Positions 3,606-43,638 of a stretch of DNA of 64,000 nt are shown in pieces. A program made the position numbers and the translations under genes. Source of the stretch: Alphaproteobacteria bacterium (GTDB taxonomy: Bacteria; Pseudomonadota; Alphaproteobacteria; JBFXJJ01); the NCBI GenBank assembly GCA_050175015.1, contig JBFXJJ010000008.1, positions 32,001 to 96,000 on the forward strand. Reading direction: 5' to 3'. The notes beneath the pieces are model-generated. The model did no database searches. It was not told the origin of the DNA and saw only the letters and a program-made list of their open reading frames with translations. Within the stretch, counting starts at the first letter, position 1. Each line of letters begins with the position of its first letter.

Positions 3606-3683
3606 GCACTCGTAGCTCAGTTGGATTAGAGTGTCGGCCTCCGAAGCCGAAGGTCGCAGGTTCGAATCCTGTCGAGTGCGCCA
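3606..3683 (+). tRNA. tRNA-Arg(CCG); integration site (attL) of the outer island
   Basis: Acceptor stem GCACTCG/CGAGTGC, anticodon arm TCGGC-CTCCGAA-GCCGA, T-loop GGTTCGAATCC, encoded CCA. Confidence 0.97.
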
Positions 3684-4046
3684 CTAATAATTTACTGATT
3701 TAATTAATTTATTTTTGTTTTTCGTTTTCGTGAAACAGCCCACAAAAACCCCTTGCGGGACAGTATGGGGACAAAATTTTTAAAAAATCTTGATAAATAC
3801 TAATTATCTACAACAATTAACAATTAAACCTTCAACGCAAACTTAAGCTTTTCCAAAAGATTTAGATTGTTGTTTTTTGTTGTTTATGGTTATTGATTGT
3901 CCCTTAGTTGTCCTTTTTAATACGTATTGCTAACAATATATCTTTTTAAAACAATATATTAGTGTATAAGATTGTCGGAATTATACTCTAATTGATTTAT
4001 TTAAAAATATAATCTATAATGATGTGCGATTTTTAAAGGAGAGGTT

Positions 4047-5111
4047 ATGGCAACGATTGAAAAAAGAGAAACAGGCAAAGGGCTTCAGTATCGAGTTAAA
4101 GTTCGCAAAAAAGGCTTTCCAGCTCAAACCGCAACATTTTCTCGCTTAACAGATGCTAAGAATTGGGCGAATGAAATTGAAAGTTCTATTGTTAATAACC
4201 GCTATTTTCCAACCAATGAGCTTCGCAAAAGAACGATATCCGATTTAATTGAAAGATATATCAAAGAGGTTTTATCTAAAAAACCAAGACGAGCTTATGA
4301 TGCTGTTCCTAAGCTTCGTTGGTGGCAGGAAAAAATTGGTTTATACACTTTGGCAGATTTAACAACCTCACTTCTTTTCGAAACAAGACAAAAACTTTTT
4401 GATGATGATATTAAAAACGGTAAGAAAAGAAGCAATACAACAGTTAATAAATATGCAACGGCTTTAAATACGGCTTTAAACATTGCGGTTAATGAATTGC
4501 AATGGCTTGAAAATAATCCAATGAATAAGATTAAGAAGTTGAAAGAGCCAAGAGGCAGGGTTCGTTATTTATCAGAAGAAGAAAAAAACTCATTATTGAA
4601 TGCTTGTAAGGAAAGCAAGAATCCGCATTTATTTAATGTTGTTTATCTGGCTTTAAGCACAGGAGCTAGATATGGCGAAATAATCAACTTAAAATGGGAG
4701 CAAATCGATTTTAACCGCAAAGTCATCACTTTATACGAAACTAAAAACGGCGAAATAAGACTTTTGCCTCTGGTGGGCAAGTCTTATGAATTAATGAGAG
4801 AGCATTCTAAGGTTAGAAGAATTGATAGTGATTTGGTTTTTCCAAGTGCGATAAAACCTCAAAAGCCGATTGAAATAAGAAAATCTTGGCTTAACGCTCT
4901 TGAAAAAGCAGGAATTGAAGATTTTAGATTTCACGATTTAAGACATTCAACTGCTTCTTATCTTGCTATGAATGGAGCAACTCTAGCCGAAATTGCAGAG
5001 GTTCTAGGGCATAAGACTTTGGAAATGGTTAAAAGATACTCACATCTATCCGAAGCCCACACCGCAGGCGTTTTAGAACGAATGAATCAAAAGTTTTTAG
5101 GTGAAGATTGA
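4047..5111 (+). CDS. Tyrosine recombinase/integrase of the outer island
   Basis: TGAR, FHDLRH, LGHKT, RY catalytic motifs; adjacent to tRNA attL. Confidence 0.95.
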   Translation: MATIEKRETGKGLQYRVKVRKKGFPAQTATFSRLTDAKNWANEIESSIVNNRYFPTNELRKRTISDLIERYIKEVLSKKPRRAYDAVPKLRWWQEKIGLYTLADLTTSLLFETRQKLFDDDIKNGKKRSNTTVNKYATALNTALNIAVNELQWLENNPMNKIKKLKEPRGRVRYLSEEEKNSLLNACKESKNPHLFNVVYLALSTGARYGEIINLKWEQIDFNRKVITLYETKNGEIRLLPLVGKSYELMREHSKVRRIDSDLVFPSAIKPQKPIEIRKSWLNALEKAGIEDFRFHDLRHSTASYLAMNGATLAEIAEVLGHKTLEMVKRYSHLSEAHTAGVLERMNQKFLGED

Positions 5112-5249
5112 GGCTTAACTTAAATATAAAAAATTTAATTTTATAGTAAAGTCAGTTAAAAATGATGCTAAAGTTAGGCAAACAAATAACTAAAAACAAC
5201 AGAAAATTATCTTGTTTTCATAAGCATTTTATTTTGATTTGACATGTGT

Positions 5250-5294
5250 CTCATAACCTGAAGGTCGTAGGTTCAAATCCTGCCCCCGCAACCA
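5250..5294 (+). repeat. 3' half of tRNA-fMet(CAT), attL of the inner element (not an intact tRNA)
   Basis: CTCATAACCTGAAGGTCGTAGGTTCAAATCCTGCCCCCGCAACCA; no D-arm or 5' acceptor strand upstream; imperfect copy at 34366-34410. Confidence 0.9.
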
Positions 5295-5329
5295 AAATTA
5301 GATTGTAATATCAATAAGTTAGAAAAATA

Positions 5330-5359
5330 AAAAGCCTCGAGAATCACTCGGGGCTTTTT
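5330..5359 (+). terminator. Intrinsic terminator downstream of the tRNA-fMet fragment
   Basis: AAAAGCCTCGAG-aatca-CTCGGGGCTTTTT hairpin plus T-tract. Confidence 0.75.
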
Positions 5360-5469
5360 GCTGTTGCCGCACCATTGCCGCAACGTGTGTTAATATCCAT
5401 TAAAAAACTACCCACAAGATTTTTGACATGGGATTCTTTTATATTGGAGATAGGGAGTTTTATATGAAA

Positions 5470-7158
5470 TTACATATTACAAAAGCGATACCAGTAATTA
5501 GCTGGAACGAGGGTTCTAAAGTGTCTATAAGCAATAAAATCTATTCCAAAATAACCATAATTATATGTTGGAGATTTTTCAACGCAATCGAAATGATCTA
5601 ATTCTAAAAATTTTAGCATTATTTCTTTATAAGAGTTTATATCGACTTCTAATTTAATAGGTGCTTCAGAATGTCCTGCTTTATGGTGCAATGGAGAAAA
5701 ATATAAATCATTTAAATCTTTACTTAAAGGATACCAAAGTTGAGCAGTAGTTTCTTTACATACCCCACTCATCATAACATACAAATTTTTGTAAAACTCT
5801 TCTTGTTTTAAGTTTACTGCCCAACCAGCAAAAGTTGGTATAAGCCAAGACATATTAGTTAATTTTTTAAATACGTCTTCATTTAAACTTTCTGTTCTAG
5901 ACGTAATCAAATCGTCAAAATTATCAGTTGATATTGGATAAAAATAACGCTTAGACATTGTATAACCAAAAACTTCAACAATATCTATAAGCCATTGTGA
6001 AGCTATTTTATTTTCTCCCATCAACATTAGTAAAGACATAGCAAGTGTTATATCTATACAATTTTCATCAAAGCAAGGAGAATTAGATATTGAGTTGTTT
6101 TGTATAATTCCTACAAGCAAAGATGTTGCTTTTTGGGCAGTTTTGAATTCTGAATAGGTGTTGTTGTTTGAAAAATAAAAATGAGAAAGTCCAATAGAGG
6201 ATACTAATCCAATAATTTCAAAAACTAATATACTAAACAGGCTACTATCTCTTGTGTATCCAGATAAGCCGTCTCTAACCATACAGTGGCGTTCAATTTT
6301 AGTTAGAAACTTTTTAGAAATATCTGAGTAAGTATTCCAAATGTTTTTAAAAGATGGTAAAAGTTTTTTTCTATCTCTCTCTGAAAGTTGGTTTAATAAG
6401 TTCCAAGACCAGACAACAGCTCTTTCTGCTCCAATTACAGCTGGTTTTATATTGCCCTCATTCTCTGCCCAGTTAGTTAAAAGCCGAGTTGCTAAGTTTA
6501 CACGGACAAGAGCTTTTTGTATTTCTTTTACTTTTTTCTTATCTTTTGTAAAAACACCATTTTTATCAAAATTTAATTGCCTTTGCAGAATATTATAAAA
6601 GTGTTTAAGAGAATAATCAGGTTCACCAATTAAAGCTAGTGTTCTACGAAGATCATTACGCTCATCTTTGTCAAATAAGTTTTCATTTAAAAGATATTTT
6701 TGAATAAAGTTTGATATTTCATCAGCACCCCAGAAATCAAACTCTGCATCATCTTTATGATCATTTGTATATCCTGCCCAATTTGGCTGAATTTCTTCTT
6801 TTAAGTCCCCAGTTGTGCCAAGAACAATTTTTTTAGGAAGTCTTTGTGCATTTGAGGGAACGCAACTTCTTAGGTAAACATCAAAAATTTCGTTTAGTGA
6901 TGGGCGAACATCTTGTGTTCCTGTGTCCCAATTAGAACGACCAATATCTCCTTGTTTGAGAACGAATAAGAATAATTTCTCTATATTATCTTTGGGGTCA
7001 ATACCAATGGCAGATAAATCAACACCATTTTGCCTAGTCCCTCGTTGCGTTTTAGAGGTTGGTATAATTCCCATAGAATTTAATAAATCTGGAAGCAGCT
7101 TATCAAACTCGTCTCTTTCTTTTAATGTTCTTAAATATGTGGAAATAATTAATTTCAT
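5470..7158 (-). CDS. Protein with N-terminal Mrr-like PD-(D/E)xK nuclease domain and helical C-terminus (candidate defence)
   Basis: E..FDKLLPDLLNSMG...QNGVDLSAIG...FVLKQG resembles the Mrr_cat pattern; start taken at MKLIIS (7158), 5 nt after the upstream stop. Confidence 0.6.
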   Translation of the reverse strand: MKLIISTYLRTLKERDEFDKLLPDLLNSMGIIPTSKTQRGTRQNGVDLSAIGIDPKDNIEKLFLFVLKQGDIGRSNWDTGTQDVRPSLNEIFDVYLRSCVPSNAQRLPKKIVLGTTGDLKEEIQPNWAGYTNDHKDDAEFDFWGADEISNFIQKYLLNENLFDKDERNDLRRTLALIGEPDYSLKHFYNILQRQLNFDKNGVFTKDKKKVKEIQKALVRVNLATRLLTNWAENEGNIKPAVIGAERAVVWSWNLLNQLSERDRKKLLPSFKNIWNTYSDISKKFLTKIERHCMVRDGLSGYTRDSSLFSILVFEIIGLVSSIGLSHFYFSNNNTYSEFKTAQKATSLLVGIIQNNSISNSPCFDENCIDITLAMSLLMLMGENKIASQWLIDIVEVFGYTMSKRYFYPISTDNFDDLITSRTESLNEDVFKKLTNMSWLIPTFAGWAVNLKQEEFYKNLYVMMSGVCKETTAQLWYPLSKDLNDLYFSPLHHKAGHSEAPIKLEVDINSYKEIMLKFLELDHFDCVEKSPTYNYGYFGIDFIAYRHFRTLVPANYWYRFCNM

Positions 7159-7163
7159 AAGAT

Positions 7164-8879
7164 TTAACCCTGCTTTTCTTTTCTTACATTTATCAAACAA
7201 GATCTGCGGCATTCATAATCAGCACTGTTTAAAACAAATCTTCTTGGTAGTGTAAAACCAGATGAAAACTCCATATACCCTGTTGGTTCAGAATAGTTGC
7301 CTTCTAAAAGACTAAAGTTGGCAATACCAGCTTTTATAGGAACGACAGCACAAATTTGCCTAACAATAGATTTTTTTTCTCCTTCTTCCATGCTTTTTTG
7401 CATTCTTTTGTTTTCTGCCTTATGGAAGGCTTCTTTCATATTTTTAGACGGTTTTAACTCTTGTATCTCGGGCAACACGTCTAAAGCACTCATATAATTA
7501 TTGATAAAGCTTGAAGCATCTTCACAAAGTTTTTTTATTTTTCCATTTTGTTCTGATAAACTGATATTGTTGAGTTTTTCAATTGTTAAAATAGGATAAT
7601 CTAGACCAAGTTCCTCTGTAAAGAGCTCAAACAAAAGACCATATTTGTTATCTATAATTTCTGGAATTAGTAGTGATGAAAATGACGAGATGGCTTGCTC
7701 TTCATTTATAATAACTCCTAGACATCTTTTTATGAAAAAAAGAAAATCTTTATCATTCATATTTTTGACAATATCTAAATCAAAAATAAGATTGTTTGCT
7801 TTAGAAACCGATAATTTCTCTAATATTTCTTTTACAAACAAAACATAGCACATACTTTCTTTTGTAAGCCATTTTGTAACAAGATTAGAAATAACGTTAG
7901 GGCTTTCAAATAACTTATAAAAAACATTATCAAAGCACTCTAATATTTTTATGTTCAATTTTCTTGAATCGTTATTTTTAACCCAATTTTCTATATAAGA
8001 TATAGCTAATTCAATATCACCACCTTCCGCTATTTTCTGTAAAACATAGTCAAAGTTTTGTATCGCACCTTTAGCAGAAGGTTTTATATATAATAAACAA
8101 TTTAATAATGGCTCAAATAACCCTTGATGACGAATAGCTTCATCATTTCTAAACAGCAAGTCAGCTATAAAAGCTAAAGCCGTATCATCTTTAGCTTCTC
8201 CAAGCTCCAAAAGTTTTTTTGTTGCATTAATCCACTCTATTGAAGCTTCGGCTAAAGCTTGTATAGTTGCGTTTTTTATAGAAGTATCTTGAGATGATAG
8301 CCCTCTATTAAATTTATCCCATACAGCATCTTTATGTTTATCAGAAACACACTGTAATCTTGCTAGTCTTCCTAAAAGCCAAATATTATTTTGTGCAAGA
8401 AAATCACTACCGTTAAACACCGTTTCTAATATAAGATTTATAACTATATCAGGTTCTTTTTTCGCCCAAGCAATAACAGCTACATTGTATATTGAAGAGG
8501 TTTCTTCTGTAAGGCTTACTTTTAAAAGGTTGATAATATCACTACAGACATTAATGTCATCTCTAAGCCTAACCTCTAGTTTGTTTGGGAAGACGCCAGA
8601 GGCATAATCATTGCAAGTCTTTGGGTGTTGAACTCTGCATAGTTCGATTAAATTTTCTGCATTTAAAGATGTGATGAAAGGTAAAGCATCTCCTACTAAA
8701 TGCAATACCTGAAATAAATCAAAAGTATTCTCATTTATAACATCACAAGCAAGCTTAAAAATATCATTATGGTTATGAACTTTTGCTAAAAAACGACCAA
8801 CAATATCTTTGTTTTTTTGTCTCCATAAATTATGGGCATGCTCAAAAATTTTCTCTGGTTTTATAGTTTTATTTTTCAT
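7164..8879 (-). CDS. Hypothetical alpha-helical (HEAT/ARM-like) protein, co-operonic with the nuclease
   Basis: 571-aa ORF of amphipathic helices with no recognisable catalytic motif; tightly coupled to 5470..7158. Confidence 0.55.
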   Translation of the reverse strand: MKNKTIKPEKIFEHAHNLWRQKNKDIVGRFLAKVHNHNDIFKLACDVINENTFDLFQVLHLVGDALPFITSLNAENLIELCRVQHPKTCNDYASGVFPNKLEVRLRDDINVCSDIINLLKVSLTEETSSIYNVAVIAWAKKEPDIVINLILETVFNGSDFLAQNNIWLLGRLARLQCVSDKHKDAVWDKFNRGLSSQDTSIKNATIQALAEASIEWINATKKLLELGEAKDDTALAFIADLLFRNDEAIRHQGLFEPLLNCLLYIKPSAKGAIQNFDYVLQKIAEGGDIELAISYIENWVKNNDSRKLNIKILECFDNVFYKLFESPNVISNLVTKWLTKESMCYVLFVKEILEKLSVSKANNLIFDLDIVKNMNDKDFLFFIKRCLGVIINEEQAISSFSSLLIPEIIDNKYGLLFELFTEELGLDYPILTIEKLNNISLSEQNGKIKKLCEDASSFINNYMSALDVLPEIQELKPSKNMKEAFHKAENKRMQKSMEEGEKKSIVRQICAVVPIKAGIANFSLLEGNYSEPTGYMEFSSGFTLPRRFVLNSADYECRRSCLINVRKEKQG

Positions 8880-9608: not shown

Positions 9609-9908
9609 TTAAGCAACCTTGTTGTAAGGAACAATCGCTTCAAGTTCGCTTGCTATCTTTCTTTTGGTTTTGATAAGCTCAAAATCTTCTTGAATGCCTA
9701 AAAAATAGCCTTCGGACAAACCAAAATATTTAGTAAGTCTTAAATCGGTATCTGCGGTTATGCCTCTCTTACCATTGATAATATCGCTAATGCGGTTTTG
9801 AGGTATCCCCAGAGCCTTCGCAAGAGAATTTTGAGATAATCTTAAGGGCTCTATAAACTCTTCCTGTAAGACTTCGCCAATGTGGGGTATGTCGATATAT
9901 TTTTCCAT
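9609..9908 (-). CDS. higA: HigA-family antitoxin (HTH_XRE)
   Basis: HIGEVLQEEFIEPLRLSQ..LAKALG...RGITADTDLRL. Confidence 0.9.
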   Translation of the reverse strand: MEKYIDIPHIGEVLQEEFIEPLRLSQNSLAKALGIPQNRISDIINGKRGITADTDLRLTKYFGLSEGYFLGIQEDFELIKTKRKIASELEAIVPYNKVA

Positions 9909-9978
9909 TTTGATAAACCCTTAAAAATAAAACCTTATTAGTTATATATAATACAGATAACATATAAAGTCAAGATTT

Positions 9979-10260
9979 TTAGTGATAATCAACAATTTCA
10001 ACATTATGAGCGTCTTTGTCCTGCCAAACAAAACATATTCGCCATTTGTCGTTTATTCTGATTGAATGTTGCTCTTTTCTATCGCCTTTCAATGCCTCAA
10101 GATTGTTAGATGGAGGGATTTTTAAGTCCTCAATCCTTTTAGCCCTATTTATCATCGCAAGCTTGATTATAGCTCTTCTTTGAATATCAAAAGGAAGCTT
10201 TTTTGAGGTTTCTCCGTGCCAAATCTTGGCTGTTTCTTTGCATTTAAAAGATACTATCAT
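9979..10260 (-). CDS. higB: HigB-family (plasmid maintenance killer) toxin
   Basis: MIVSFKCKET...PPSNNLEALKGDR..QHSIRINDKWRICF...VEIVDYH; upstream of higA. Confidence 0.92.
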   Translation of the reverse strand: MIVSFKCKETAKIWHGETSKKLPFDIQRRAIIKLAMINRAKRIEDLKIPPSNNLEALKGDRKEQHSIRINDKWRICFVWQDKDAHNVEIVDYH

Positions 10261-13200
10261 TTTTTAACATTCTCTACGGCAACAATAACTTCGCTTTTGA
10301 CTTGTTTTGCGTTTTGTTCGATTGCATCAAGATAGTTTTCACCTAATTGTCCTTTTATAAACTCAATTTCTTTAATAAAAGCAGTGATTTCTTTTTCGCT
10401 ACTCTGATTGCCTATTTCCTGAGAAGAAAGTCTCCTTAATGAATATTGAGATAAGGTTTTATATTCTCTTAAATCCTTAATCAAAACTCTTATAAATGAT
10501 GACAAACTGCTAAGCCTATCCTCATAAAAACGTATAGATGCATTAAGATTATTTATAGCTTTAGTTTCAAGTGAGTTTTCGTTGCTTTTATGATGAAATT
10601 TAGGCTTCTTTTCTTTGATGTTTTCGTATGTATCCCAAAACATATCAGAATGTTTGATTTTAGGTTCAGTTTGTTTGCATTCAATATTAGGCAACAGGCT
10701 TTCAATATTTATATCAAAAATATCAGGCTTTTTATCTCCTTCAACCTTTGCTAGTTGAACAAAAAACCCTAACGCTTTTTTTCTAACTACAATGACTTGA
10801 TTTTCTTTAAAGTTTTTAGCCGTCTTAACTCTGTTAGGCAGATATTTAATCTTTTTAAAAATTTCAGGGTATTCTATCCTAATATCCTCAATTTTATTTC
10901 TAATTTTGGTGATGATGCTTTCTTCTTCATTATCTTCAGGGTTTGAATTTATGCGTTTAAAAAGCTCTGAAGCAGAAGGAATTTCATCTTGGGTAAAGAC
11001 TTTTGAATCTTCACCAAGCGTATTATGAATAAGAAACATTTTCTGGCTTGCGATTTCTTTACTTTTTATAACATCAGCACCTTTTAGGGTTGGAAAGAAG
11101 TTGCAGATATAAAGCTCATCAAAAACCTTTTTGCCAATACGGTTAATTCTTCCGATCCTTTGAATAACCCTAGTTGGGTTCCAAGGAATATCATAATTTA
11201 TGATTGTTCCTGCTCGATTTAGATTGAAGCCTTCAGAAAGCTTATCGCTGGCAATAAGAATGGAGTAATTATCTTCCTGTTTGCTTTTAGCAATGCTTGC
11301 ATCAAAATTTTTATAAAGTGTTTCAGCCGTTTTTTTGTTTAAATCACCAGTAAAGGAAAAAACTTTGTTAGGAAAAGCATTTTCAATCGTTTCCTTAAGG
11401 TGAGCAACTGTATCTAAATACTCGGTAAAAACAATAAGTTTGCGGTTTTGCTCTTTTTTTATACTTTCTTTTAAAAAATCAATTAGCTTTGCCCTTTTAG
11501 GATCAGAATTTGCTAAATCAAGATTATCTATTTCTTTTTTTATTTTAGCAAACAAGGCTAAATCACTATCTATATCTTTTAAGAATTGATTTTTATTATA
11601 AAAACTATTGATGTCATAAATTCGGTTATTTTTTGGAGCTTTCTTATCGAGCAGTTCTTCAGCAAATTTTTCTAAGTGTTCTTCAATAGTATCTTCATCT
11701 TCAGAGTAAATTTTATTAATCAGCTTTCTATCAAGAATATATTTGCCATTTGAATTTTCGATAAACTCTTTAATTTTGATATGGGCTTTTTCAAAGTTTT
11801 CAATACTTTTTTTGAACGCTCCAAAAGAGCTTTCAAACCGTTTTACAAGGAGTCTTCTCATAAAGTCATATAAGTTTCTTTGTTGTTGATATTCCCTGTT
11901 ATCATCTTGGTTTAAGTCTTCAAGATTAAGTTTTTTCTCATAGTTAAATGGCTGATAAATTGCCCCTTTAAATTCCCCCACTTCTGCAAAATACTCTTTA
12001 ATGACCTTGTCGTAAAATTCTGATTGCTTTTCGTTTAACTCAAAAAGCAATTCTTGAGGGTCTTTAACCTTTGAAAGTTCTTTAACCTCTGTTCGATATT
12101 GATAATCGTTTTTAAGGTCTATTCGGTTTCTTCTAATTAGAATTGGCTCAATAATCTGCCTGATTTCGTTTGATAGTTCGCTTAAGCGGTTTTTAACTTT
12201 TTTAATATCGGCATATTCTTCTTTAAAAAGCTCAAAATATTGCTTTTTAGATTTGGCAAGTTTTTCAATATCGTTAGAGTTATGATACCTAGAAACATAA
12301 GCAAGTTTGTTAAAAAGGTTTTCATAGCTTTTAAATCTAGCTTCAATGTTATCATCAAGTGTTATTAGAGATTTTCCTGGAACGATAAAAAGTTTAAGGA
12401 GAGAGAATATATCCGCAGGGCTGTTATTAAATGGTGTGGCGGTTAGCAAAATCACAATTTTGTTACGACAAATCATGTTTAAATATTCATAATCTTGCGT
12501 ATCTTGATTGCGGAAACGATGAGCTTCATCAATAACCACAACTTCAATATCCTTACCTTGATTATTCATATATTCAGCAATTTCTTCAAGCTTGCCTGTT
12601 GACCTAACCTCCCAGTCAAAGAGTTCAAAATCACTTTTGTATTTTTGCCAGCCAGCGTTAGCATTAGCATCGCCAATTAGTCCAGGAGGGCAGATAATCA
12701 TTCCTCTTTTGCCAATATTCTTGGCAATGGCACTTGCTATAATCGATTTTCCAAGCCCCACCACATCGGCAATAATAACGCCATTATAGTTTTCGATAAT
12801 GGTTAGGGCTTGATTGACGGCATCAAGCTGATAGGAATAAGTCTTATAGCCCTTATCTTCTAAAATTCTGATGACTTGAGGTTTTATTTTTCTTTGTTCT
12901 TGAAGGTCTAAATAGGTTTTTAAGATATAAGCATACGCTTCAAAAGGCGTAACATTTGCAACTTGAGATTTATTGTTTAGAAAATCGATTAAAAATTGCT
13001 TCCTTGCATTATCTTCAGTAATTTTAACAGAGGTTTCCCAAAGCTCATCAAAGTAGCTTTCTGCATCTTCGGTGCCATAATCAGAAATTTCAACATTAAA
13101 CTCGTTTTGTTTTTCAAGTCCTGCTTTGGTTAGATTGCTAGAGCCCGTAATAAACTTAGTATCAGAAATATGCTTTAACTGGTCATTGATTTTGAAAAGA

Positions 13201-17069: not shown

Positions 17070-17071
17070 AA

Positions 17072-18007: not shown

Positions 18008-18016
18008 TATTCCTTA

Positions 18017-35387: not shown

Positions 35388-35432
35388 AATGTCTCCATTA
35401 TTTTATGATGTATCACAAAAATTATATTGAGA

Positions 35433-35615
35433 TTATTTGTTTTTTTGATTTATTTCTTTTTCTAACTCTTCAAATTCTTCAGGGTCGGCATAGGCAATCT
35501 TGCCGTCTCGCCAGACAACAAGTTTTGTGCCAGTTTGTTTGGCAATTTTGATAGCCTCTAAACCGCCAGCTTTTATACCTTCAAGAATTTTATCAGTATT
35601 AATTACATCTAACAT
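35433..35615 (-). CDS. Small partner of the zeta-toxin-like kinase
   Basis: 60 aa, AKQTGTKLVVWRDGKI, 3 nt downstream of the kinase. Confidence 0.65.
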   Translation of the reverse strand: MLDVINTDKILEGIKAGGLEAIKIAKQTGTKLVVWRDGKIAYADPEEFEELEKEINQKNK

Positions 35616-35618
35616 AGT

Positions 35619-36206
35619 TTAAATCTCGCTTTCTTTAAGGATATTATCCCATATTTCTTTATTATAAACAATAATTTCGTTCTTTTCCTTCTTTGCTATC
35701 AGCTTGCCAGAATGAGGATCAACATTGTTATAAATTAAAGCCTTATCGGCAATAGGCAGATAATGATTGATAAGGTTTACAAAGCCTCTTTTATATCTGC
35801 GGATAATATCTTGTTTAGGTATATCGTGTCCGCCTTGTGAGACTCTTATTTTTACTCGTTCAATTGCCATATCAGAGGAAGGCAACCATAAAAAGATAAG
35901 TCCTATGGTATAACCACCTTCTTTAGCTTTTTTTAACTTGTCAAAAAAGGTTAGGCTTGAGCAGGTAGTTTCAAAAGCAAAGCTCTTTTTTGAAGCCATA
36001 AGACTGTCTATGCGGTTTAACATAAGTTTGCCTGCGGTTATGGCTTGCCCTTTGGGGTTAAGGGGATTTAAACCTCTTGCTATTTCATCGGCGTTTATAA
36101 ATTCATACATCGATAAAAACTTGGGAAGAAGAGTCATTGCGGTTGTGGTTTTGCCCGAACCGTTTGCCCCTGAAATCATGTAAATTGTTGGATTTTCATC
36201 TTTCAT
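35619..36206 (-). CDS. Zeta-toxin-like P-loop kinase
   Basis: SGANGSGKTT, FINADEIA, FAFETT, RVSQGGHDIP. Confidence 0.85.
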   Translation of the reverse strand: MKDENPTIYMISGANGSGKTTTAMTLLPKFLSMYEFINADEIARGLNPLNPKGQAITAGKLMLNRIDSLMASKKSFAFETTCSSLTFFDKLKKAKEGGYTIGLIFLWLPSSDMAIERVKIRVSQGGHDIPKQDIIRRYKRGFVNLINHYLPIADKALIYNNVDPHSGKLIAKKEKNEIIVYNKEIWDNILKESEI

Positions 36207-36209
36207 AAA

Positions 36210-39200
36210 TTAAACCTCACTCTCTTTATCTTTTTCAGTATCTGCTTCAATCACAGCTTTTATGTCTGCAATATGTTTTTTGGTAAAATATATTTTCATA
36301 TCTTTATCAGCTAAAACTACTTCAAGTTCATTTCCTTCAATTTCTTTAAACATTTCCAATATCAAATCATCAGAATCGTTTGCATGACAGAACATGGCTG
36401 AGTGATTAGGACAAAGAGCTAAATAATTTTGATAATGTCTTTTTTCTAAATCACTTCTTAAAAATTCGGTGGTCTCAAAATAGTAATTCCCATCTTTTAA
36501 TTTAAAAGGCAATTCCTTTTGGCATATTTGACATATCATTTTGCCGTCTGGGTTTGTGTATTGACTGATTAAATAATTTTTTGCTTCTTTTTTTACATCT
36601 TCACGGTTTGTTGATACTGAGCGAGTTCTTTTTTCGAATGTCCTTTCTGGGGCACTAGAGGCTTGTGCTCTAACTCTTTCTCTTCTTCTTTCTGGGTTTA
36701 ATGGCTCATCTTCTGGTAATTCAAAATTATCATCTTCTTCTTTTTCGGCTAAAATTCTTTCTTGTTCTTCTTCAGGTAATTCTGCAAAACGTCTCGCTCT
36801 TTCGGCTGAAGCAATATCTTTAAAACCTAGTTTTTTGGCGGCTTCTTCTTTCTCCTTTTTTTGTTCTAGTAATTTTAGTTTTTCTTCTATTTGTTTTTTT
36901 GATTTTTCTTCTTCTTCTAATTCTTCTTTTGTCGGCTCTCTTTTTGCGTTAAAGCCAAAATTTATAGCAAGCAAAAAGTTGTCGCCTTTATCATAAGAAA
37001 AGCCCTTTGGCAGCAAATCGCTAAAAGCCTTGTTTGGGGTTACAAAACTTATTTCTTTTGTTTCATTTTCTTGAGGTATCCATTCATTATTTTTAAGCAC
37101 TTTGATTAGGGTTGATTCTGCCATTCTTGGATCTACTGAACCATTGGGCTTATAAGATGCTTCAACTATATTTTGATACCACCAGTAATCTTTAGAAAAT
37201 GACGAGTCATTATTTTTAAGCGTATTCCATATTAGTTTAGAAACATTAATCTCTTTTTCTCCTAATACCTTTTCAAGATTGGGAATATGCCAGTCTTGAA
37301 AAGATTCATAATCTGTTACTCGTCCAGAACAAGACCAAACCAAGTTCCGTTGAAGACTTTTATCTTCTTGTTTTTCTATTGCTAGTTCAGTTTTAACACC
37401 CACATTTTTAAAAAAATCAACAAGTTTTTCTTTTTCAATTTTAAGCTTTAAATATTTATTGGATATTTTATGCAAATTATGACCTTCAAATGCAGAATAA
37501 AAAGCACTTAAGTTTGTTTCTTCATACGGGCTATCAATATATAATTGCTCAATTTTTCTCCACTTACCATTTTCACAAAGAATAATATAAGACTCTTCAA
37601 ATAAATCGGTTTCATCAGGATTTTTTTCTAAAAAATCAATAAAAATTTTAATGTCTTCAATTTTGGAAAATCTATTGCCAATCCAATACCGTTCTTTTAA
37701 AAAACACTCTATATATTCTTTCTCTCCAAACTCTCTAACGCCCATTTTTTCTAAAAATAATTTGGCATTTTTTTGCTCTGCTTGGTTTTTTCCTAAAGAA
37801 TATGTTTTAGGTTCAACTGTTGGGTAAGTATTTTGTTTTCTTTCTTCATTATAAAAAAAGCATTCATTTTCCGAGTTAAAATTACCATCAGTTAATTTTA
37901 TAATTTTGCATTTTTTAAGTTGCCATAAACTTGAATAGTCTTTTTCTACTATTTCATATAAAAAAGCATAAAAGTTTTGAAGCCATTCGTTAGTTTTTTT
38001 GCTTAGCCATTCTTTTGAAGTTTCTTCAATTTCATTTTTTGTATACTTTGCAGTCAAAGTTTTTATTAAATCTTCTTTATCCCATTTCTTTATTTGTAAG
38101 CTATTAAGAAACTTATCAGCATTATCACTTCTCTGCCGTGATGACATAACCCATAAAGGAGGCTGTTCATCATAATCAAAAAGAAATTCCATATCCTCAT
38201 TGGATAGCAAATCCTTTAATTTTCGATCTCCTTGCAATAAATATTTAGCAGGATAATGTGTTCGACAAAATGTGGGAGTTAATGCTTCATTGTTCATTTT
38301 ATCAATTATTTTTTCTCTGATTACTTCGTATTTATCAGAAATGTCGTCATCTCCATTAGGTAAAACATTTAAGAAATCGGTGTTCAAAAGATTTAAATCT
38401 TTGATTCTATGTAATGATTGAGCGGTTAAATCAGCTAATTGTTCATATAAGGAATCGTTTGCAGGGGTGTTTTTAATACTTGCTCTGCTTAATTCGGGAA
38501 CAAATGGTGCGTGGAGATGGAATCTTAATCCAGATATTTCTTTTTTAGCAGGGAAGAAAACGGAAACATTGGCAGGCTCGGCAACAACAATTTTCACTTG
38601 ATTTGATAAATCGTTATTAGCGTTAAATTCTTTTACCCCAGCTAAAAAATCAAGCGGAAAAGCAATGGCAACTTTTTGTTTTTCTAAACCTTTGACTGGA
38701 GCATCAAACTTTAGAAAATGTGAGCTTTCAGTGGTTTTACCATTTATTTGTTTTAGAATTTCAATATGGTTTGGAGAGTGTTTTGTTCTTAAAACTTCAC
38801 CAGATGTTTCTGATAAAATTTTCCAGCTAATTGTTTCAATGTTATTTAAGAATAGCAAAGTTGTTTCTTCAAGCTCGTTTAGCCCATCCTTGATTTCTTC
38901 AAAAGCATCTTCTTGGCTTTTTTTGTGATTATTAAATGGAAATTCAAATTTGGTTTTTTTTGAATTAATAGGACTTAATTCAAAAGGTAAAACCAAATCT
39001 GTTATTTTAAAGGAAAATGTAGGAGACCATATATGAGGTGTTTCAGAGTATGCAAAAACAGCTTTAAATCCTATTCCAAATCTTCCTATTTTGTCGTTGT
39101 CATCTGCCTTTGTTCCTTCGCCAATATCTGTAATTGCAAGAATATCTTTCTCATCAAAAGGTCTGCCGTTGTGTTCGAATATCAGTTTGTTATTATGTAA

Positions 39201-39374
39201 TGTAAAAGTTACGTCTTTAGCTTCGGCATCTTCTGCATTTTGCAATAGTTCGTATATAAAATGAGCACTATCTGGGTATAAGTCTTCAACGATTTTTCTT
39301 ATACCAGTGTGTTTTTTCAAAACCCGAGCTAATTCGTCTCGTTCCTCAACTCTTATTTTTTCTATGATATTCAT
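36210..39374 (-). CDS. Sacsin-like GHKL ATPase with C-terminal HNH-like/Zn domain
   Basis: ELLQNAEDA, HNGRPF, IGRFGIGFKAVF GHKL motifs; C-terminal CQICQ...LALCPNH; start taken at MNIIEK. Confidence 0.8.
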   Translation of the reverse strand: MNIIEKIRVEERDELARVLKKHTGIRKIVEDLYPDSAHFIYELLQNAEDAEAKDVTFTLHNNKLIFEHNGRPFDEKDILAITDIGEGTKADDNDKIGRFGIGFKAVFAYSETPHIWSPTFSFKITDLVLPFELSPINSKKTKFEFPFNNHKKSQEDAFEEIKDGLNELEETTLLFLNNIETISWKILSETSGEVLRTKHSPNHIEILKQINGKTTESSHFLKFDAPVKGLEKQKVAIAFPLDFLAGVKEFNANNDLSNQVKIVVAEPANVSVFFPAKKEISGLRFHLHAPFVPELSRASIKNTPANDSLYEQLADLTAQSLHRIKDLNLLNTDFLNVLPNGDDDISDKYEVIREKIIDKMNNEALTPTFCRTHYPAKYLLQGDRKLKDLLSNEDMEFLFDYDEQPPLWVMSSRQRSDNADKFLNSLQIKKWDKEDLIKTLTAKYTKNEIEETSKEWLSKKTNEWLQNFYAFLYEIVEKDYSSLWQLKKCKIIKLTDGNFNSENECFFYNEERKQNTYPTVEPKTYSLGKNQAEQKNAKLFLEKMGVREFGEKEYIECFLKERYWIGNRFSKIEDIKIFIDFLEKNPDETDLFEESYIILCENGKWRKIEQLYIDSPYEETNLSAFYSAFEGHNLHKISNKYLKLKIEKEKLVDFFKNVGVKTELAIEKQEDKSLQRNLVWSCSGRVTDYESFQDWHIPNLEKVLGEKEINVSKLIWNTLKNNDSSFSKDYWWYQNIVEASYKPNGSVDPRMAESTLIKVLKNNEWIPQENETKEISFVTPNKAFSDLLPKGFSYDKGDNFLLAINFGFNAKREPTKEELEEEEKSKKQIEEKLKLLEQKKEKEEAAKKLGFKDIASAERARRFAELPEEEQERILAEKEEDDNFELPEDEPLNPERRRERVRAQASSAPERTFEKRTRSVSTNREDVKKEAKNYLISQYTNPDGKMICQICQKELPFKLKDGNYYFETTEFLRSDLEKRHYQNYLALCPNHSAMFCHANDSDDLILEMFKEIEGNELEVVLADKDMKIYFTKKHIADIKAVIEADTEKDKESEV

Positions 39375-39375
39375 T

Positions 39376-42300
39376 TTACATTTTTCCCGAAACTTCAATA
39401 ACTCCAAAAATTATAGGAGTTGCTCTTATGTCCCCGCTATTTGAAGTCTGCTCAAGCTCTTTCATTCTTCTATCAAAATCTGCATTTGCTCGTGCTAACT
39501 CTGCTTCTTTCATAATCTTAATTTTATCGTTATTTGCCTTTTCTAGCTGGGCTTCTATCGTTTTACATCTTGCCCTGTGGCTAATGGTTAGGCTTTGCAT
39601 TTTATGTTCAACCAGCTCTTTGTTTAAAGAAAAATGTTCGTTTTTCTTTTCTAACCATTTTTGATAATGTAGGTCTTCAAGTTTGTTTAAAATGCTCTCG
39701 TTCAATTCCAACTTAATATCAGCATTTCTTGCTTGAGAAATTATGTTTAATAGTCTTTGTTCTAGAGCAATGTCATCGGTAATAGAAACTAGCATTTCTT
39801 CGTTTTTAATGCCTGATTTTAACCATTTGTATATGGCAAAATAGTATGTTCCTGATTTTAAGTCGGCATCTTCTAAAGCTAATTTAGTTTTTTTGATTTC
39901 TTTGATTTCAAAGAATTTTGCTGATTGTTTTATTAATGGGTGAAAAACTGATAAATAAACAATGTCTGGGTTGTCTTTGGCTATTTCTTGTTCAAATGTT
40001 ATAGAAAGACTAGGCTTGTTTCCCTTAAGCCATTTTTCCCATTCTCTATGCTGTGGATCGTTAGAGTTATATATGGCTTTTAAATCACTTAACAATAAAT
40101 CTCTGGCTTCTTGGCTTAATTTAAGATTTTTAATATCTTTTTCTCCAGAAATATGATTGTCTTCGTTTTTTAATTTATTGCATAAATAGCTATTCAAACA
40201 GTTTTGTAAATAATTGGGAGATAAGAAAGAATTTTCAGCATCATCTAAGTCGTTTTGCCAAGAACTTTTAGGGATATTTAAGCCAAAAAACTCTGATTGT
40301 TTTTCTTCCAAATTTTGCTCTTCTTGGATAAGTCTGATCTTATTATCTGCTAGCTGTTGTAACCTGTTTTTTCTTTCCTCATCACTTAAATTAAAGTTTT
40401 CTGCAATTTCCTTAATTTCTTGGTTTATTTCGCCAAGAATTTCTTCATTACCGCCGACTGTAGATTGAAAAACGCCTATACGCCATAAGCATCTTTCATA
40501 TATATCACCATCTACGGTATTGGGAGTTACTAAATTAATGATGGCAACGGTTTCACTTTTCTGCCCATATCTATCAATACGACCTATTCTTTGTTCTATA
40601 CGCATAGGATTCCAAGGCAAGTCATAGTTAATTAGTAAATCACAAAATTGGAAATCTAAACCCTCACAGCCAACCTCAGATGATAACAAAACATCTATGG
40701 CATTTTCATTTTCTTTAGGCATAGAAAACCGTTTTCTTAAGTCTGCTCGGTCTTCGTCTTTTATATCTCCATGAATTAAAGCAACCCTGATATTGGCTTT
40801 TTTTGTTTTTTCATAAAGATAATTTAATGTGTGCCTGAATGTGCTGAAAACCATAGCCTTGTTGTTTTCAAGGTTGTGTTTATCTAATAGGACTTTTATA
40901 AAAGCCTCAGCTTTTGGATCATAAGGGTCTAATGTTTTGGCATCTTCTATTATTTTTGAAATATCGGTTTTTATCTCATCTATAAAGTCGTTGTTATATA
41001 AAAAATCCTCATATTCATCGTTGGCATAGTTATCACCGTCTAACAAGCTAAGTCTTTTGTTTAAAATATCCGATAGCGTAGGGACAAGAGCGTAAATACA
41101 ACTTGAGGCTTGTCTTCGTATTGTTGTCATTAAAAACTTAACGAAACGTTCTCCGTGATAATAAGCTAAAATCTTTCCAACAATTTCAAGCAATTTATCG
41201 TGAAGATATTTTTGGTCTTTTGTAAACTCAACTATAATAGTTTCAGGTTTTCTTGTGGTGAAATTTCCAATATCCCTTCTTCTTGTTCTGTTTATGATGG
41301 AACTGAAAGTGTAAATTTCTTCAAGATTCTTAATGGTTTTTATTCGTTCGTTATCAAGTATCTTATGTTCTTTCAAGCCATCATATGTTTTTTGAAACAA
41401 AGGGTTCTCTCTTATAAACATTCTGCCCCATTCAGTATTAGCAACACTTTCAAGTGCAACAATAGCTTCTTTGTTCCAATCTTTGTTAGCTGTTCTGCAA
41501 CAGCTTATAGCTTTGTTAATGAAAATATTGGGGGCTGCCATTTGAGAAAAGCTGTTTTTATCTATAACTAGGTCTGGTCTTAAGACGTTTAGCAAAGTAA
41601 AGAGGTCTTCACTGCCGAGTTGAACAGGGGTTGCAGTTAAAAGTAAAACAGCTTGAGCGTTATCACATAAAAAACGAACGCCATTATGTAGCAAAGTGTT
41701 CTGGTTTCTAATATGATGAGCTTCATCAACAATTACTAAATCAAATTTAGGTGGAGGATCAAGTTCTAACAAACCATAATCTTTGCTTTTGCCTCGGCCT
41801 TGTTTGCCAAACAGGTTGTCTGAATCAAAAAGAGAGAAAGGCATAATTGCTTTAGAATATTTATGAGGCCATTCGCCTTCTAAATAAGTTTCTTGAATAC
41901 AGCTTCTTAACAAAGAACCATCTATAGAAGAAAAATCTTCATTAAAACGCTTCATTTCTATTTGCCACTTTTTCTCTGCCACAAGGGCTTTTGGACACAT
42001 AACTAAAATAGAAGATATATCCATTCTTGCTTGTAATTCTTTGATAATTAAACCAGCCTCAATTGTTTTACCAACACCCACCTCATCAGCAATTAATATG
42101 CGAGGTCTATCACTGCGAATCAACTTCATAACAGGTCTATATTGGTATGGAACAAAATTTACTCTGCCCATTCTAAGAGAAAATAGCTCTTTAAAAGATG
42201 GGGATAATATTTGAGAGCTTGTGAGATATGCCTCTAATTCTTTTTTGTTGATAATTTCAGATTTAATTTCTGGTAAGTTTTTAGATTGAAGTTGGCTTTC

Positions 42301-42936
42301 ATAATATGTTGCTATGGTATTGTTTTGAAAAACCTTATATCGTTTTTCTACGCCATCTATTATTTCTATAATTGGAAAAACTGAATTTTCATCTGAACGC
42401 AAACAAACAACATCACCCACTCTAAATAAAGAAACTTGTTTTTTTTCAAGATTATTGTTTGTCGGACTATCTTCGGCAGAAACTGAATTTTTCAATTCTT
42501 TTTGTTGCATTTCTGCAAGAGATTTTTGCTTGGTATCATTTATTATTTTTATGGTTTCATTTTTAGAGCCTAACGTTTTTAATAGTCTTTCAAGCGTGTC
42601 TGCATCTCTATAAAGTTCATTGGCAGGAACATCTTCAGATGATAAATGAGCCCACTTGTTTCTGACATTTTGCAACTCTTTTAGCCAATTTCTAGCCTCT
42701 CTTGGTAAATTGATGATAGATGTAATCTCATACCAGTTTTGATCTAAAATTCTTAACAATGCAGCAAAGTCTAGCTGTTCAAGACTTTTTACATTTTTTT
42801 CCCTTATTATTCGTTGTTGCTGAAAACTAAGTCTTTCGATAACGCTTTTTTCCCACCAGTTAGAATCTGTTTTGGGTAGAATGTCATTTAAAAAAACGGT
42901 TAGGTCTTTAGTTGCTAAAGAAATTAAATCAATCAA
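39376..42936 (-). CDS. Swt1-like HEPN + SNF2 (RapA-like) helicase
   Basis: LDFAALLRIL...RNKWAH (Rx4H); ADEVGVGKT, DEAH, LTATP, GCEGLDFQ, WNPMRIEQRIGRIDRYGQ; TTG start with AAGGAG RBS. Confidence 0.85.
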   Translation of the reverse strand: MIDLISLATKDLTVFLNDILPKTDSNWWEKSVIERLSFQQQRIIREKNVKSLEQLDFAALLRILDQNWYEITSIINLPREARNWLKELQNVRNKWAHLSSEDVPANELYRDADTLERLLKTLGSKNETIKIINDTKQKSLAEMQQKELKNSVSAEDSPTNNNLEKKQVSLFRVGDVVCLRSDENSVFPIIEIIDGVEKRYKVFQNNTIATYYESQLQSKNLPEIKSEIINKKELEAYLTSSQILSPSFKELFSLRMGRVNFVPYQYRPVMKLIRSDRPRILIADEVGVGKTIEAGLIIKELQARMDISSILVMCPKALVAEKKWQIEMKRFNEDFSSIDGSLLRSCIQETYLEGEWPHKYSKAIMPFSLFDSDNLFGKQGRGKSKDYGLLELDPPPKFDLVIVDEAHHIRNQNTLLHNGVRFLCDNAQAVLLLTATPVQLGSEDLFTLLNVLRPDLVIDKNSFSQMAAPNIFINKAISCCRTANKDWNKEAIVALESVANTEWGRMFIRENPLFQKTYDGLKEHKILDNERIKTIKNLEEIYTFSSIINRTRRRDIGNFTTRKPETIIVEFTKDQKYLHDKLLEIVGKILAYYHGERFVKFLMTTIRRQASSCIYALVPTLSDILNKRLSLLDGDNYANDEYEDFLYNNDFIDEIKTDISKIIEDAKTLDPYDPKAEAFIKVLLDKHNLENNKAMVFSTFRHTLNYLYEKTKKANIRVALIHGDIKDEDRADLRKRFSMPKENENAIDVLLSSEVGCEGLDFQFCDLLINYDLPWNPMRIEQRIGRIDRYGQKSETVAIINLVTPNTVDGDIYERCLWRIGVFQSTVGGNEEILGEINQEIKEIAENFNLSDEERKNRLQQLADNKIRLIQEEQNLEEKQSEFFGLNIPKSSWQNDLDDAENSFLSPNYLQNCLNSYLCNKLKNEDNHISGEKDIKNLKLSQEARDLLLSDLKAIYNSNDPQHREWEKWLKGNKPSLSITFEQEIAKDNPDIVYLSVFHPLIKQSAKFFEIKEIKKTKLALEDADLKSGTYYFAIYKWLKSGIKNEEMLVSITDDIALEQRLLNIISQARNADIKLELNESILNKLEDLHYQKWLEKKNEHFSLNKELVEHKMQSLTISHRARCKTIEAQLEKANNDKIKIMKEAELARANADFDRRMKELEQTSNSGDIRATPIIFGVIEVSGKM

Positions 42937-43030
42937 AAGATTCTCCTTAACTCAACATAAATTTAAAATATCGAACCAAAATTATAATAGTTATATTAAG
43001 TTTTAAAGTCGATATTTTTACTAAAATAAA

Positions 43031-43112
43031 TCGTTGAGCAATAAAGTTGCGAATAATGATTTTCCCATTAGGGCAGGATTAAAGTAGTATTACTTTTACT
43101 ATCCTGCCTTCT
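43031..43112 (+). other. IncP/RP4-like origin of transfer (oriT2)
   Basis: CGTTGAGC..GCGAATAA block, inverted repeat GGGCAGGATTAAAGTAG/TTACTTTTACTATCCTGCC, canonical MOBP nic TATCCTG^C at 43106/43107. Confidence 0.82.
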
Positions 43113-43230
43113 AAAAGTGTGAGAAATTTTGAGACATTATAAAAATTGATAAATTTTAAAAAAGCCTTTGTTTTCTAGGTATTTAAAGCGTTAAATATTC
43201 AAAACTGATTAATAAGGGCATCAAAATGTC

Positions 43231-43350
43231 TCAAGAGTCTTGAAAAGTCTTAATAATTCTTAATTTTTCTTAAAAAATCTTAAAATTTCTTAAAGTGTTT
43301 CAAAAAGTCCTAAAAATTCTTAAAAAATCTCAATTTGTTTCAAATGTCTT
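43231..43350. repeat. Degenerate 10-bp tandem array (about 12 units, consensus TAAAAAWTCT) between the two oriTs
   Basis: tgaaaagtct taataattct taatttttct taaaaaatct taaaatttct taaagtgttt caaaaagtcc taaaaattct taaaaaatct in exact 10-bp register. Confidence 0.85.
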
Positions 43351-43377
43351 AAAGTTTTTGAATTTTCTCATCAATTT

Positions 43378-43445
43378 GGAGGGCAGGATAGTATCAGCAA
43401 TATTGCTGATAAATTTTGAGGGCTTATTCGCCTTCAGCTCAACGA
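43378..43445 (-). other. IncP/RP4-like origin of transfer, inverted relative to oriT2 (oriT3)
   Basis: GGGCAGGATAG, palindrome TATCAGCAATATTGCTGATA, CTTATTCGC...GCTCAACG in the same order as the RP4 oriT core; nic on the minus strand at 43384/43383. Confidence 0.82.
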
Positions 43446-43591
43446 TAAAAACCTACGGGACACTGTAGGGACACTTTTTTATAAAAACGGGTAAAAATGG
43501 GCAAAAAATGACAATCTCTCTTTTTTCACAAGAGCTTGGTTTTCTTATTGTTTTTGATTGTAAGCGGTTGATATTATTGTCTTTTTGAGAA

Positions 43592-43638
43592 CTCCGAAGC
43601 CGAAGGTCGCAGGTTCGAATCCTGTCGAGTGCGCCACT
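43592..43638 (+). repeat. attR of the outer island (duplicated tRNA-Arg 3' end)
   Basis: 47-bp exact copy of 3639-3685. Confidence 0.95.

Follow-up and report, generated by a model that had tools for sequence, protein, structure and literature searches.

Accretion, as outlined in the accessible part of one source (PMC5704250), is a path by which an element integrates into an attachment (att) site, decays to a remnant that keeps its att sites and then receives another integrative and mobilizable element (IME) in that remnant, the resulting composites being transferred as one. The accessible portion of a second report (10.64898/2026.01.13.699239) describes more than 1,500 islands of which the only transfer function is an origin of transfer (oriT-only islands, iOriTs), with defence genes near the oriT and with some of these hitchers integrated within their helpers. 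The locus analysed here is an island borne by a 64,000-nucleotide stretch of DNA, called the window below, from an Alphaproteobacteria bacterium (assembly GCA_050175015.1, contig JBFXJJ010000008.1, positions 32,001 to 96,000). It is a nested form of known accretion and of oriT-only hitchers and is explained by known processes. On the evidence of its sequence, the island would be a three-layer mosaic produced by successive site-specific integrations and decay, a reading to which a probability of about 0.6 is given.

The outer parts of the island and its junctions are listed here in the coordinates of the window.

3606 to 3683, plus strand: tRNA-Arg(CCG) gene, called by ARAGORN, the chromosomal target of the outer element
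3639 to 3685, plus strand: 47-nt attL core of the outer element, repeated without any change at 43592-43638 (repeat family D3)
3757 to 3773, plus strand: pair of GGGACA arm-type repeats near the outer integrase, with inverted copies at about 3895-3915
4047 to 5111, plus strand: outer tyrosine integrase, 354 aa (Pfam PF00589 Phage_integrase, 1.2e-35)
5250 to 5294, plus strand: orphan 3' half of a tRNA-fMet (left copy), the inner IME's hybrid attL, beginning 138 nt past the stop codon of the outer integrase
34366 to 34411, plus strand: right tRNA-fMet half, hybrid attR of the inner IME
34412 to 34553, plus strand: left-arm relic of a B-type tRNA-fMet element, with a terminator-like hairpin and decayed GTGCTAC arm repeats
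34554 to 42936, minus strand: cargo of the outer remainder, namely a 277-aa protein of unknown function, a zeta-toxin-like kinase, TmtA (Tiamat) and a HEPN+SNF2 DrmD-like helicase (Pfam; PADLOC 2e-68 and 6.9e-111)
43457 to 43473, plus strand: pair of GGGACA repeats, arms of the outer element's right end
43592 to 43638, plus strand: attR core of the outer element, the 3' 47 nt of tRNA-Arg (repeat family D3)

The tRNA-Arg(CCG) gene is the only tRNA gene that ARAGORN finds in the window, and the 47-nt repeats of this gene set the size of the outer island at exactly 40,000 bp. Outside the repeats lie housekeeping genes, encoding a U32 peptidase on the left and isocitrate dehydrogenase and aconitase on the right. 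A first-pass annotation of this DNA had described an outer element with 47-nt tRNA-Arg repeats, its own integrase and GGGACA arm repeats, all of which are present, and had stated that it lacks a relaxase, a replicase and an Xis. Pfam scans of the six outer open reading frames (ORFs) of 34412-43590 (four large and two small, of at least 35 aa) agree with this, since they detect no relaxase, primase, Xis-like or mating-pore domain. Removal of the inner element, which was expected to leave about 11 kb, leaves about 10.9 kb by computation, comprising the outer integrase, four genes and the oriT region. This remainder has the make-up of an iOriT: it is delimited by the 47-nt att repeats, it carries an oriT of the family used by co-resident relaxases and it has neither relaxase nor pore genes. 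Compared with the iOriTs of the accessible part of 10.64898/2026.01.13.699239, the outer remainder likewise combines an integrase, att sites, an oriT and defence genes without a relaxase, as does a second element, X, described below; it differs in that a candidate helper IME lies inside the island, that the host belongs to an uncultured lineage outside the six species surveyed there and that the oriT is predicted.

The inner element, of 29 kb, lies inside this island between the two orphan tRNA-fMet 3' halves. The features that give it mobility are the following, its oriT being listed with the other origins.

5364 to 5382, plus strand: pair of TTGCCGCA arm repeats at the left end, preceded by a terminator-like hairpin (repeat scan)
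26921 to 29087, minus strand: mobilization module, with a MOBP relaxase (26921-28450), a NikA-like ribbon-helix-helix (RHH) protein (28447-28767) and an unassigned 105-aa protein (28770-29087)
29080 to 31590, minus strand: Toprim+DUF3631 primase-like protein, CHC2 zinc-ribbon protein and HTH_17/excisionase-like protein
32855 to 34159, minus strand: inner (A-type) P4-like integrase with an arm-DNA-binding domain (Pfam PF13356 and PF00589)
34227 to 34245, plus strand: pair of TTGCCGCA arm repeats at the integrase-proximal end of the inner IME

With its own integrase and att repeats, its own relaxase and oriT, and no mating pore, the inner element has what defines an IME, and its status as a complete IME is supported by the sequence. 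The att halves, arm repeats and gene content all bear out the proposal that a complete IME is nested inside a relaxase-less oriT island. Some gene names proposed for it have to be changed. The assignments of the integrase, of a homologous oriT and of a MOBP relaxase hold, the relaxase scoring 342 bits against the NF041893 TraI/MobA(P) equivalog model, of which the cut-off is 250. The 105-aa protein called TraK gives no TraK match, and the RHH protein called MobC matches NikA/TraJ in both Pfam and NCBIfam. The relaxase is about 40% identical to plasmid TraI proteins over its first two thirds only and has no match among solved structures; the excisionase domain of the HTH_17 protein scores 26.3 bits, under the 28.8 cut-off. 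The inner integrase resembles the P4-like integrases known at tRNA 3' halves by its arm-binding and catalytic domains, by an att core running from the anticodon loop to the 3' end and by arms on both sides. It differs from them in its target, which is an orphan half instead of a tRNA gene, and in its position far from the tRNA 5' side, a position also seen in a sister IME at tRNA-His.

The use of an att site borne by the island is recorded in the two halves themselves, whose anatomy, homologies and polymorphisms are directly observed. The orphan tRNA-fMet 3' half reported downstream of the outer integrase is indeed there (5250-5294): it spans the anticodon loop to the 3' end, is identical to the 3' half of the host tRNA-fMet at 44 of 46 positions, and has no 5' half and no ARAGORN tRNA call. 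It consists of a T-stem variant that is still able to pair, followed by an element-type 3' part and by a first kind of flank (A-type). The right half has an element-type 5' part with a 1-nt insertion, in the same form as in two further halves of the genome, both on a contig designated C20, and a degenerate 3' part, with one change in the acceptor stem and CCT instead of CCA at its end, followed by a second kind of flank (B-type). The T-stems of the orphan halves differ from that of the host's own tRNA-fMet. Between the two window halves, the polymorphisms swap reciprocally across a shared 17-nt core (5270-5286 and 34387-34403), and both halves are hybrid att sites with flanks of two different element types, which is the mark of site-specific accretion. 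These reciprocal polymorphisms therefore point to a single crossover between an A-type attP and a pre-existing att site of the island. Since the swap is exact at the 17-nt core and arm repeats are found at both ends of the IME, the pattern is the signature of an integrase and argues against general recombination. Site-specific integration into the island att site is thus supported by the sequence of both junctions, and this part of the earlier landing-pad proposal stands.

The halves of the window are not isolated cases. The assembly (2.53 Mb in 49 contigs, the nearest genomes compared being related to it at the class level only) contains orphan tRNA-fMet halves in five places: the window and contig C20 have two each, and contig C4 has one. 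After every one of them come a terminator-like hairpin and, beyond it, a flank of either of the two kinds. The A-type flank, characterized by TTGCCGCA pairs, follows the left half of the window and the second C20 half, the window copy being 88% identical to C20 2991-3190. The B-type flank, characterized by GTGCTAC pairs, follows the first C20 half and the C4 half. The true tRNA-fMet gene is found on contig C18 (43671-43747), at the end of a rRNA operon with the order tRNA-Ile, tRNA-Ala, about 3.3 kb of DNA (presumably 23S and 5S rRNA) and tRNA-fMet, and it ends the contig exactly. The copies of the rRNA operon probably differ in their downstream DNA, possibly by elements of this IME family.

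The DNA that follows the right half of the window reveals where the landing site probably comes from. It is 76% identical over 191 nt to C20 20576-20763, the left end of element X, and the three-way alignment of the B-type flanks of the window, C20 and C4 has a mean column identity of 83%. The GTGCTAC arm repeats are mutated in the window copy only and are intact on C20 and C4. Element X (C20 3137-20765) carries GTGCTAC pairs at both ends, one of them near its integrase, and is therefore a complete B-type element. It encodes a P4-like integrase 49% identical to the inner one, ParA, HipBA, a MmeI-like enzyme, HigBA and defence genes, and bears two inverted oriT copies around a reverse-transcriptase gene. 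No relaxase was found in X, either by tblastn with the window relaxase, which gave nothing on C20, or by Pfam scans of 13 X ORFs. The conserved boxes of the two inverted oriT copies face the reverse-transcriptase gene (RVT_1, 582 aa, C20 9576-11853, locus L036), which could be either a defence-type reverse transcriptase or a retroelement that entered at the hairpin of the oriT. The 277-aa protein encoded after the right half of the window shows no relationship to the 283-aa protein that X encodes in the corresponding place. The first C20 half is preceded by an arm region homologous to the right end of the window island (43455-43520). C20 is therefore a tandem array made of an outer-type element end, a half, X, a second half and an A-type left end. 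The C4 copy (199739-199874, locus L040) is an orphan half with intact B-type arms about 280 nt past a relaxase gene, in an element that adjoins tRNA-Val and has its oriT inverted relative to the relaxase, by comparison with the other IMEs. A module composed of a half, an arm, cargo and an oriT is therefore present in three contexts, in the window, on C20 and on C4.

Given the homology of the flank to a B-type left end, the landing site would most simply be the left junction of a former B-type element, of which the outer cargo and oriT2, one of the origins listed below, would be the remainder; the landing pad would then be a relic of accretion. This relic differs from the cis-mobilizable elements (CIMEs) in having one att core only (34366-34411 and its flank) instead of two and in retaining an apparently intact oriT of its own; no tRNA-fMet half was found at its right end. 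In the ICESt1/ICESt3 type of accretion, based on ICEs (elements that are integrative and also conjugative) and described in the accessible part of PMC5704250, the resident also decays, an incoming element of like specificity uses the att site of the remnant and the composite is excisable or mobile as one. The difference here is that the remnant lies inside another island with a different integrase and a different tRNA target, so that the arrangement is nested and not tandem.

Nine copies of the oriT are found in the genome, eight complete ones detected by a genome-wide hairpin scan and a ninth, decayed one (oriT3), read from the sequence. Those of the window, with fold z values that compare the DNA fold with shuffled sequence, and an associated repeat array are as follows.

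22698 to 22780, plus strand: oriT1, with a conserved box, a 37-nt hairpin (22740-22776) and the nick-like motif TGTCCTGC; fold z = -4.3
43032 to 43110, plus strand: oriT2, intact, with a conserved box, a hairpin (43072-43108) and the motif TATCCTGC; fold z = -4.0
43228 to 43357, plus strand: 10-bp-phased TCTTAAAA-like repeats (family D2), downstream of the oriT3 nick on the minus strand
43378 to 43446, minus strand: oriT3, decayed, with the nick arm kept, the distal hairpin arm lost and a box 4 nt shorter; fold z = -2.3

Three blocks do not vary in the alignment of all nine copies, namely the box GTTGAGC...GCGAATAA, the hairpin and the sequence TCCTGCC. The nick consensus of MOBP relaxases given in the accessible part of PMC3772185 is (C/T)ATCCTG(C/T). 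The motif TATCCTGC, carried by oriT2, oriT3, both X copies and the C4 copy, fits this consensus, while TGTCCTGC, carried by oriT1 and by the C2, C3 and third C20 copies, is one base off; with a nick consensus beside an inverted repeat, the family has the structure of a MOBP/RP4-type oriT. By analogy, the nick of oriT2 is predicted at 43106/43107. The two RP4-like origins attributed to the outer element are therefore one intact oriT and one decayed copy, oriT3 having lost one hairpin arm and 4 nt of its box. By its sequence, oriT2 is 81% identical to an X copy on C20 and 74% identical to oriT1, and it aligns with eight other copies, three of which are in IMEs that have a relaxase; oriT1 and oriT3 are 57% identical. 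Compared with the relaxosome of RP4/IncP plasmids (TraI, TraJ and oriT), the system shares a relaxase that passes the TraI/MobA(P) model, a small RHH partner and a hairpin with a nick motif. It differs by a TraI identity of about 40%, by the single base that separates oriT1 from the consensus hexamer, by the location of the nick motif within a hairpin arm and by the absence of any pore or coupling protein gene in cis. A run of phased repeats similar to that of the window lies beside the oriT copy at C20 29950.

The two outer origins are adjacent and convergent. In the element of contig C3, the oriT is antiparallel to the integrase; the copy Xa and the origins of the C2 and inner IMEs run parallel with the tRNA. 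An assignment by orientation of oriT3 to the outer shell and of oriT2 to the B-type relic was considered and not adopted, since a second, inverted copy is present in X too.

At least six sister elements in the same genome share the relaxase (69–86% protein identity) and/or the oriT, and the sister IMEs share backbone segments that are 70–94% identical. The C2 sister is a complete IME at tRNA-His, whose limits are marked by a 30-nt repeat of the end of the tRNA; its genes follow the order seen in the inner IME, and its integrase is likewise at the far end. Another, on C10, has a relaxase, a primase and an integrase. Two sisters encode integrases of the outer type. The element of C3, beside tRNA-Ser, has an integrase 80% identical to that of the outer island, after which come a 173-aa ORF, NikA, a relaxase and, at a greater distance, an oriT; that of C21, at tRNA-Leu, has an integrase 71% identical to the outer one, NikA and a relaxase, and is cut by the contig end. 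Arm repeats are also found there, a similar GGGACA pair following tRNA-Leu on C21 and a GGGGCA pair following tRNA-Ser on C3. The outer integrase of the window is full length by comparison with these sisters. Since both have their own NikA and relaxase after the integrase, the outer-type integrase would normally belong to an ordinary, relaxase-bearing IME, and neither of the two has a tRNA-fMet half. The far att site of the C3 element was not found, so that the position of the oriT relative to attR in outer-type elements is taken from the window.

From these comparisons, the following structure is proposed. The first layer would be a tRNA-Arg-specific shell (attL, arm repeats, intact integrase, arm repeats and attR) from which the module of NikA and MOBP relaxase has gone. 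The second would be the left part of a B-type tRNA-fMet element, with its att core, decayed arms, Tiamat and DrmD-like cargo and intact oriT but without its integrase. The third would be the complete 29-kb A-type MOBP IME, whose P4-like integrase would have recombined attP with the att core of the second layer, the crossover lying inside the 17 nt shared at 5270-5286 and 34387-34403. This order of events, like the excision, nicking and transfer proposed next, is what we infer from the homologies. The inner IME would be excised by its own integrase and HTH_17 protein, nicked at oriT1 by its own relaxase and exported through a type IV pore and a coupling protein encoded elsewhere. As the outer integrase is full length and arm repeats are present at both ends of the island, it could excise the whole 40 kb, a composite that oriT1 or oriT2 would allow to move in cis. 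If the inner IME were missing, the excised unit would be the 10.9-kb oriT-only defence island, mobilized in trans by a related relaxase.

The absence of a mating pore from both elements, already pointed out in the first-pass annotation, is confirmed in that the island has no mating-pore genes and that searches with four type IV secretion families matched other contigs only. These matches are three coupling-protein-like ORFs (on C3, C16 and C33), a VirB4-like ORF (on C9) and a locus of C4 (43738-54608) that combines, about 10 kb apart, an ORF of 1761 aa ending in a TrbI/VirB10 domain and an ORF with a CagX/VirB9 domain. We take this C4 locus to resemble the type IVB secretion system of intracellular bacteria. 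Proteins with Sel1 repeats and EF-hands are also encoded elsewhere in the assembly.

A first alternative holds that the site is an evolved landing pad, kept under selection by a relaxase-less island in order to recruit a relaxase and defence genes. This is close to the earlier proposal that the island offers a bait by which it recruits its mobilization machinery. A complete IME has used the site, its relaxase belongs to the same family as the oriT of the island, the 5' part of the half retains a T-stem capable of pairing, and orphan halves lie beside mobilization or integration genes twice, in the window and on C4 (about 280 nt past the relaxase gene). Against these points, the site has decayed arm repeats next to it and a degenerate 3' end, B-type elements are an obvious source of the site, the half is found in neither of the two outer-type sisters, which have their own relaxase, and oriT2 is closer to the oriT of the relaxase-less element of C20 (81%) than to the inner oriT1 (74%). 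An evolved landing pad is thus unlikely. The decayed B-type arms beside the site, and the five orphan halves each accompanied by an element end, tell against an evolved bait, and the pad, although it works, would have arisen as a by-product of accretion. In a broader version of the same idea, orphan tRNA-fMet halves would be portable docking sites carried in islands, which relaxase-less defence islands would be selected to keep, the docked IME supplying the relaxase for the composite. At least three integrase lineages use the same tRNA-fMet core in this lineage, and the module of half, arm, cargo and oriT, which has the att core at one edge and an oriT at the other, is present in three carriers; the idea is nevertheless held to be doubtful.

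A second alternative replaces the integration into a resident island by homologous or relaxase-mediated recombination between sister IMEs at the oriT or the backbone, or by the arrival of a ready-made mosaic. In its favour stand the at least six sister IMEs with backbone segments 70–94% identical, the module of half, arm, cargo and oriT shared by the window, C20 and C4, the adjacent and convergent oriT2 and oriT3 and the T-stems of the halves, unlike that of the host tRNA-fMet. The exact swap of polymorphisms at the 17-nt core and the arm repeats at both ends of the IME argue the other way, and a composite that came complete from another host would agree with accretion, so that this version is no true rival. 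Such an origin is accordingly considered improbable.

That the assembler joined two separate islands at repeated tRNA halves is very unlikely, even though the source looks metagenomic, the genome holds five similar halves and many similar IMEs and the contig pieces listed (32 of 872) break off at 5075/5104 and start again at 5269, because the halves match exactly over 18 nt at most, two false joins would be required, the word depth in run X1 is 13.2 versus 12 on the two sides and both the variant that forms the left half and its flanks are unique. An exact match of 18 nt, the longest between the two window halves, is shorter than the usual word sizes of assemblers. The reads considered are those of X1, the probable source run, in which the word depth is alike across the junction, and of three other runs. 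Short-sided joints between 3631-3671 and 5262-5265 turned out to be cross-matches between tRNA genes. Among the 32 of 872 pieces listed, an empty site, an excision joint or a bridging contig could not be read, and these pieces say nothing of their presence or absence; for an excision joint of the inner element, the two ends are 29 kb apart and the stretches compared reach 20 kb at most.

Several points weigh against the accretion of three layers. The B-type relic keeps a single att site and is not a strict CIME. As a B-type attL, the half has no tRNA 5' half beside it, and it lies 138 nt past the outer integrase with no recognizable junction between them. The loss of the right part of the B-type element and the joining of the rest to the outer shell are not accounted for, and the convergence of oriT2 and oriT3 hints at recombination at the oriT. 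An origin as a relic is also compatible with present selection for the site. The genome is apparently a metagenome bin, run X1 holding 0.90 of the sampled words, and the listed pieces (32 of 872) leave 5105-5248 unbridged. Finally, no close relative of the island was found, so that neither an empty form nor another occupant was seen.

This last point comes from searches in which the outer integrase gave 23 loci with one genome per species (best identity 51%) and 64 loci in metagenomes (best 57%). In 40 genomes of the same class, none was above 36% outside the own genome, and the element-type att variant (26 nt, at most one mismatch) was present in 0 of 400 other genomes of the class; these same-class tallies include an unpublished genome, G040, which gave no close match. 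The best relative among species genomes (51%, locus L001) lies directly after a true tRNA-fMet gene. Scanning the 87 fetched loci for the tRNA-fMet-half pattern gave 11 matches in 10 loci, of which four are real when inspected by eye, three being complete tRNA-fMet genes (L001, L018 and L065) and one an orphan half (L047), while the others are other tRNAs or chance matches. The orphan-looking half of L047 (7331-7377), on an unrelated metagenome contig, is followed by a hairpin and three TTGGCACA repeats and has a 376-aa ORF on one side and, on the other, a relative of the outer integrase at 45% identity. The contig may hold a further, independent example of elements stacked at a tRNA-fMet half.

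Other nested elements are known. The streptococcal IMEs integrated in ICEs, for example in the oriT of an ICE, as described in the accessible parts of PMC7563843 and PMC7168690, are likewise mobilizable elements lodged in an integrative element; here, the target is a relic tRNA half and not a conjugation gene or an oriT, and the carrier is not conjugative. What appears unusual in the sequence of the present locus is the nested stack, a relic with one att site and a working-looking oriT, and the occurrence of the same module in three carriers. In the tripartite ICEs of Mesorhizobium, one mobile unit is put together and taken apart by several integrases whose att sites are nested; its parts belong to one ICE and recombine in an ordered programme, whereas the layers seen here are separate elements with no sign of coordination. 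A keyword search of the open-access literature found no description of a tRNA-half relic inside another tRNA island that serves as a docking site.

The remainder of the inner IME is devoted largely to defence and toxin–antitoxin cargo.

5470 to 8879, minus strand: Olokun-like defence pair, OloB (5470-7212) and OloA (7164-8879) (PADLOC 7.5e-152 and 2.5e-64)
9609 to 22586, minus strand: HigBA, PLD-SNF2 helicase, ApeA, ABC-3C trio, type IIG restriction-modification enzyme and PDC-S18/DUF5655 (Pfam; PADLOC)
23104 to 26769, minus strand: ParDE, Gp49/HI1420 toxin–antitoxin pair and dual-Cache chemoreceptor (Pfam)

The defence genes (Olokun, PLD-SNF2, ApeA, ABC-3C and the type IIG enzyme) span 17 kb. 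The Gp49/HI1420 pair and the chemoreceptor gene are enclosed by two 45-nt repeats of the 3' end of the relaxase gene (23697-23741 and 26917-26961, family D9), 93% identical and 3.2 kb apart, as if they were a cassette inserted directly 3' of the relaxase gene; the C2 sister has corresponding relaxase-end repeats at 77062-77104 and 79425-79473. Within the chemoreceptor gene, a 300-nt direct repeat (25780-26079 and 26113-26412, 86% identical) corresponds to its two Cache modules. A 41-nt repeat (88% identical, family D14) is found at 13565-13605 and 15062-15102, at the starts of the ApeA-like and DUF2326 genes.

The present case is single and unreplicated and comes from an uncultured lineage. 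The island would be a compact natural example of how a defence island is assembled, an oriT-only island, an IME and the shell of a third element being stacked by integrases with a tRNA-half target in common, and the composite can probably move at two levels, as the inner element alone or as a whole. If the halves did prove to be docking sites, a hierarchy of hitchers would arise among islands located at unrelated tRNA genes. If att relics borne by islands regularly dock other elements, delimitation methods that assume tandem integration at one chromosomal site would miss nested hitchers and, if this is true, the dependency networks between oriT-only islands and relaxase-bearing IMEs would gain a physical basis.

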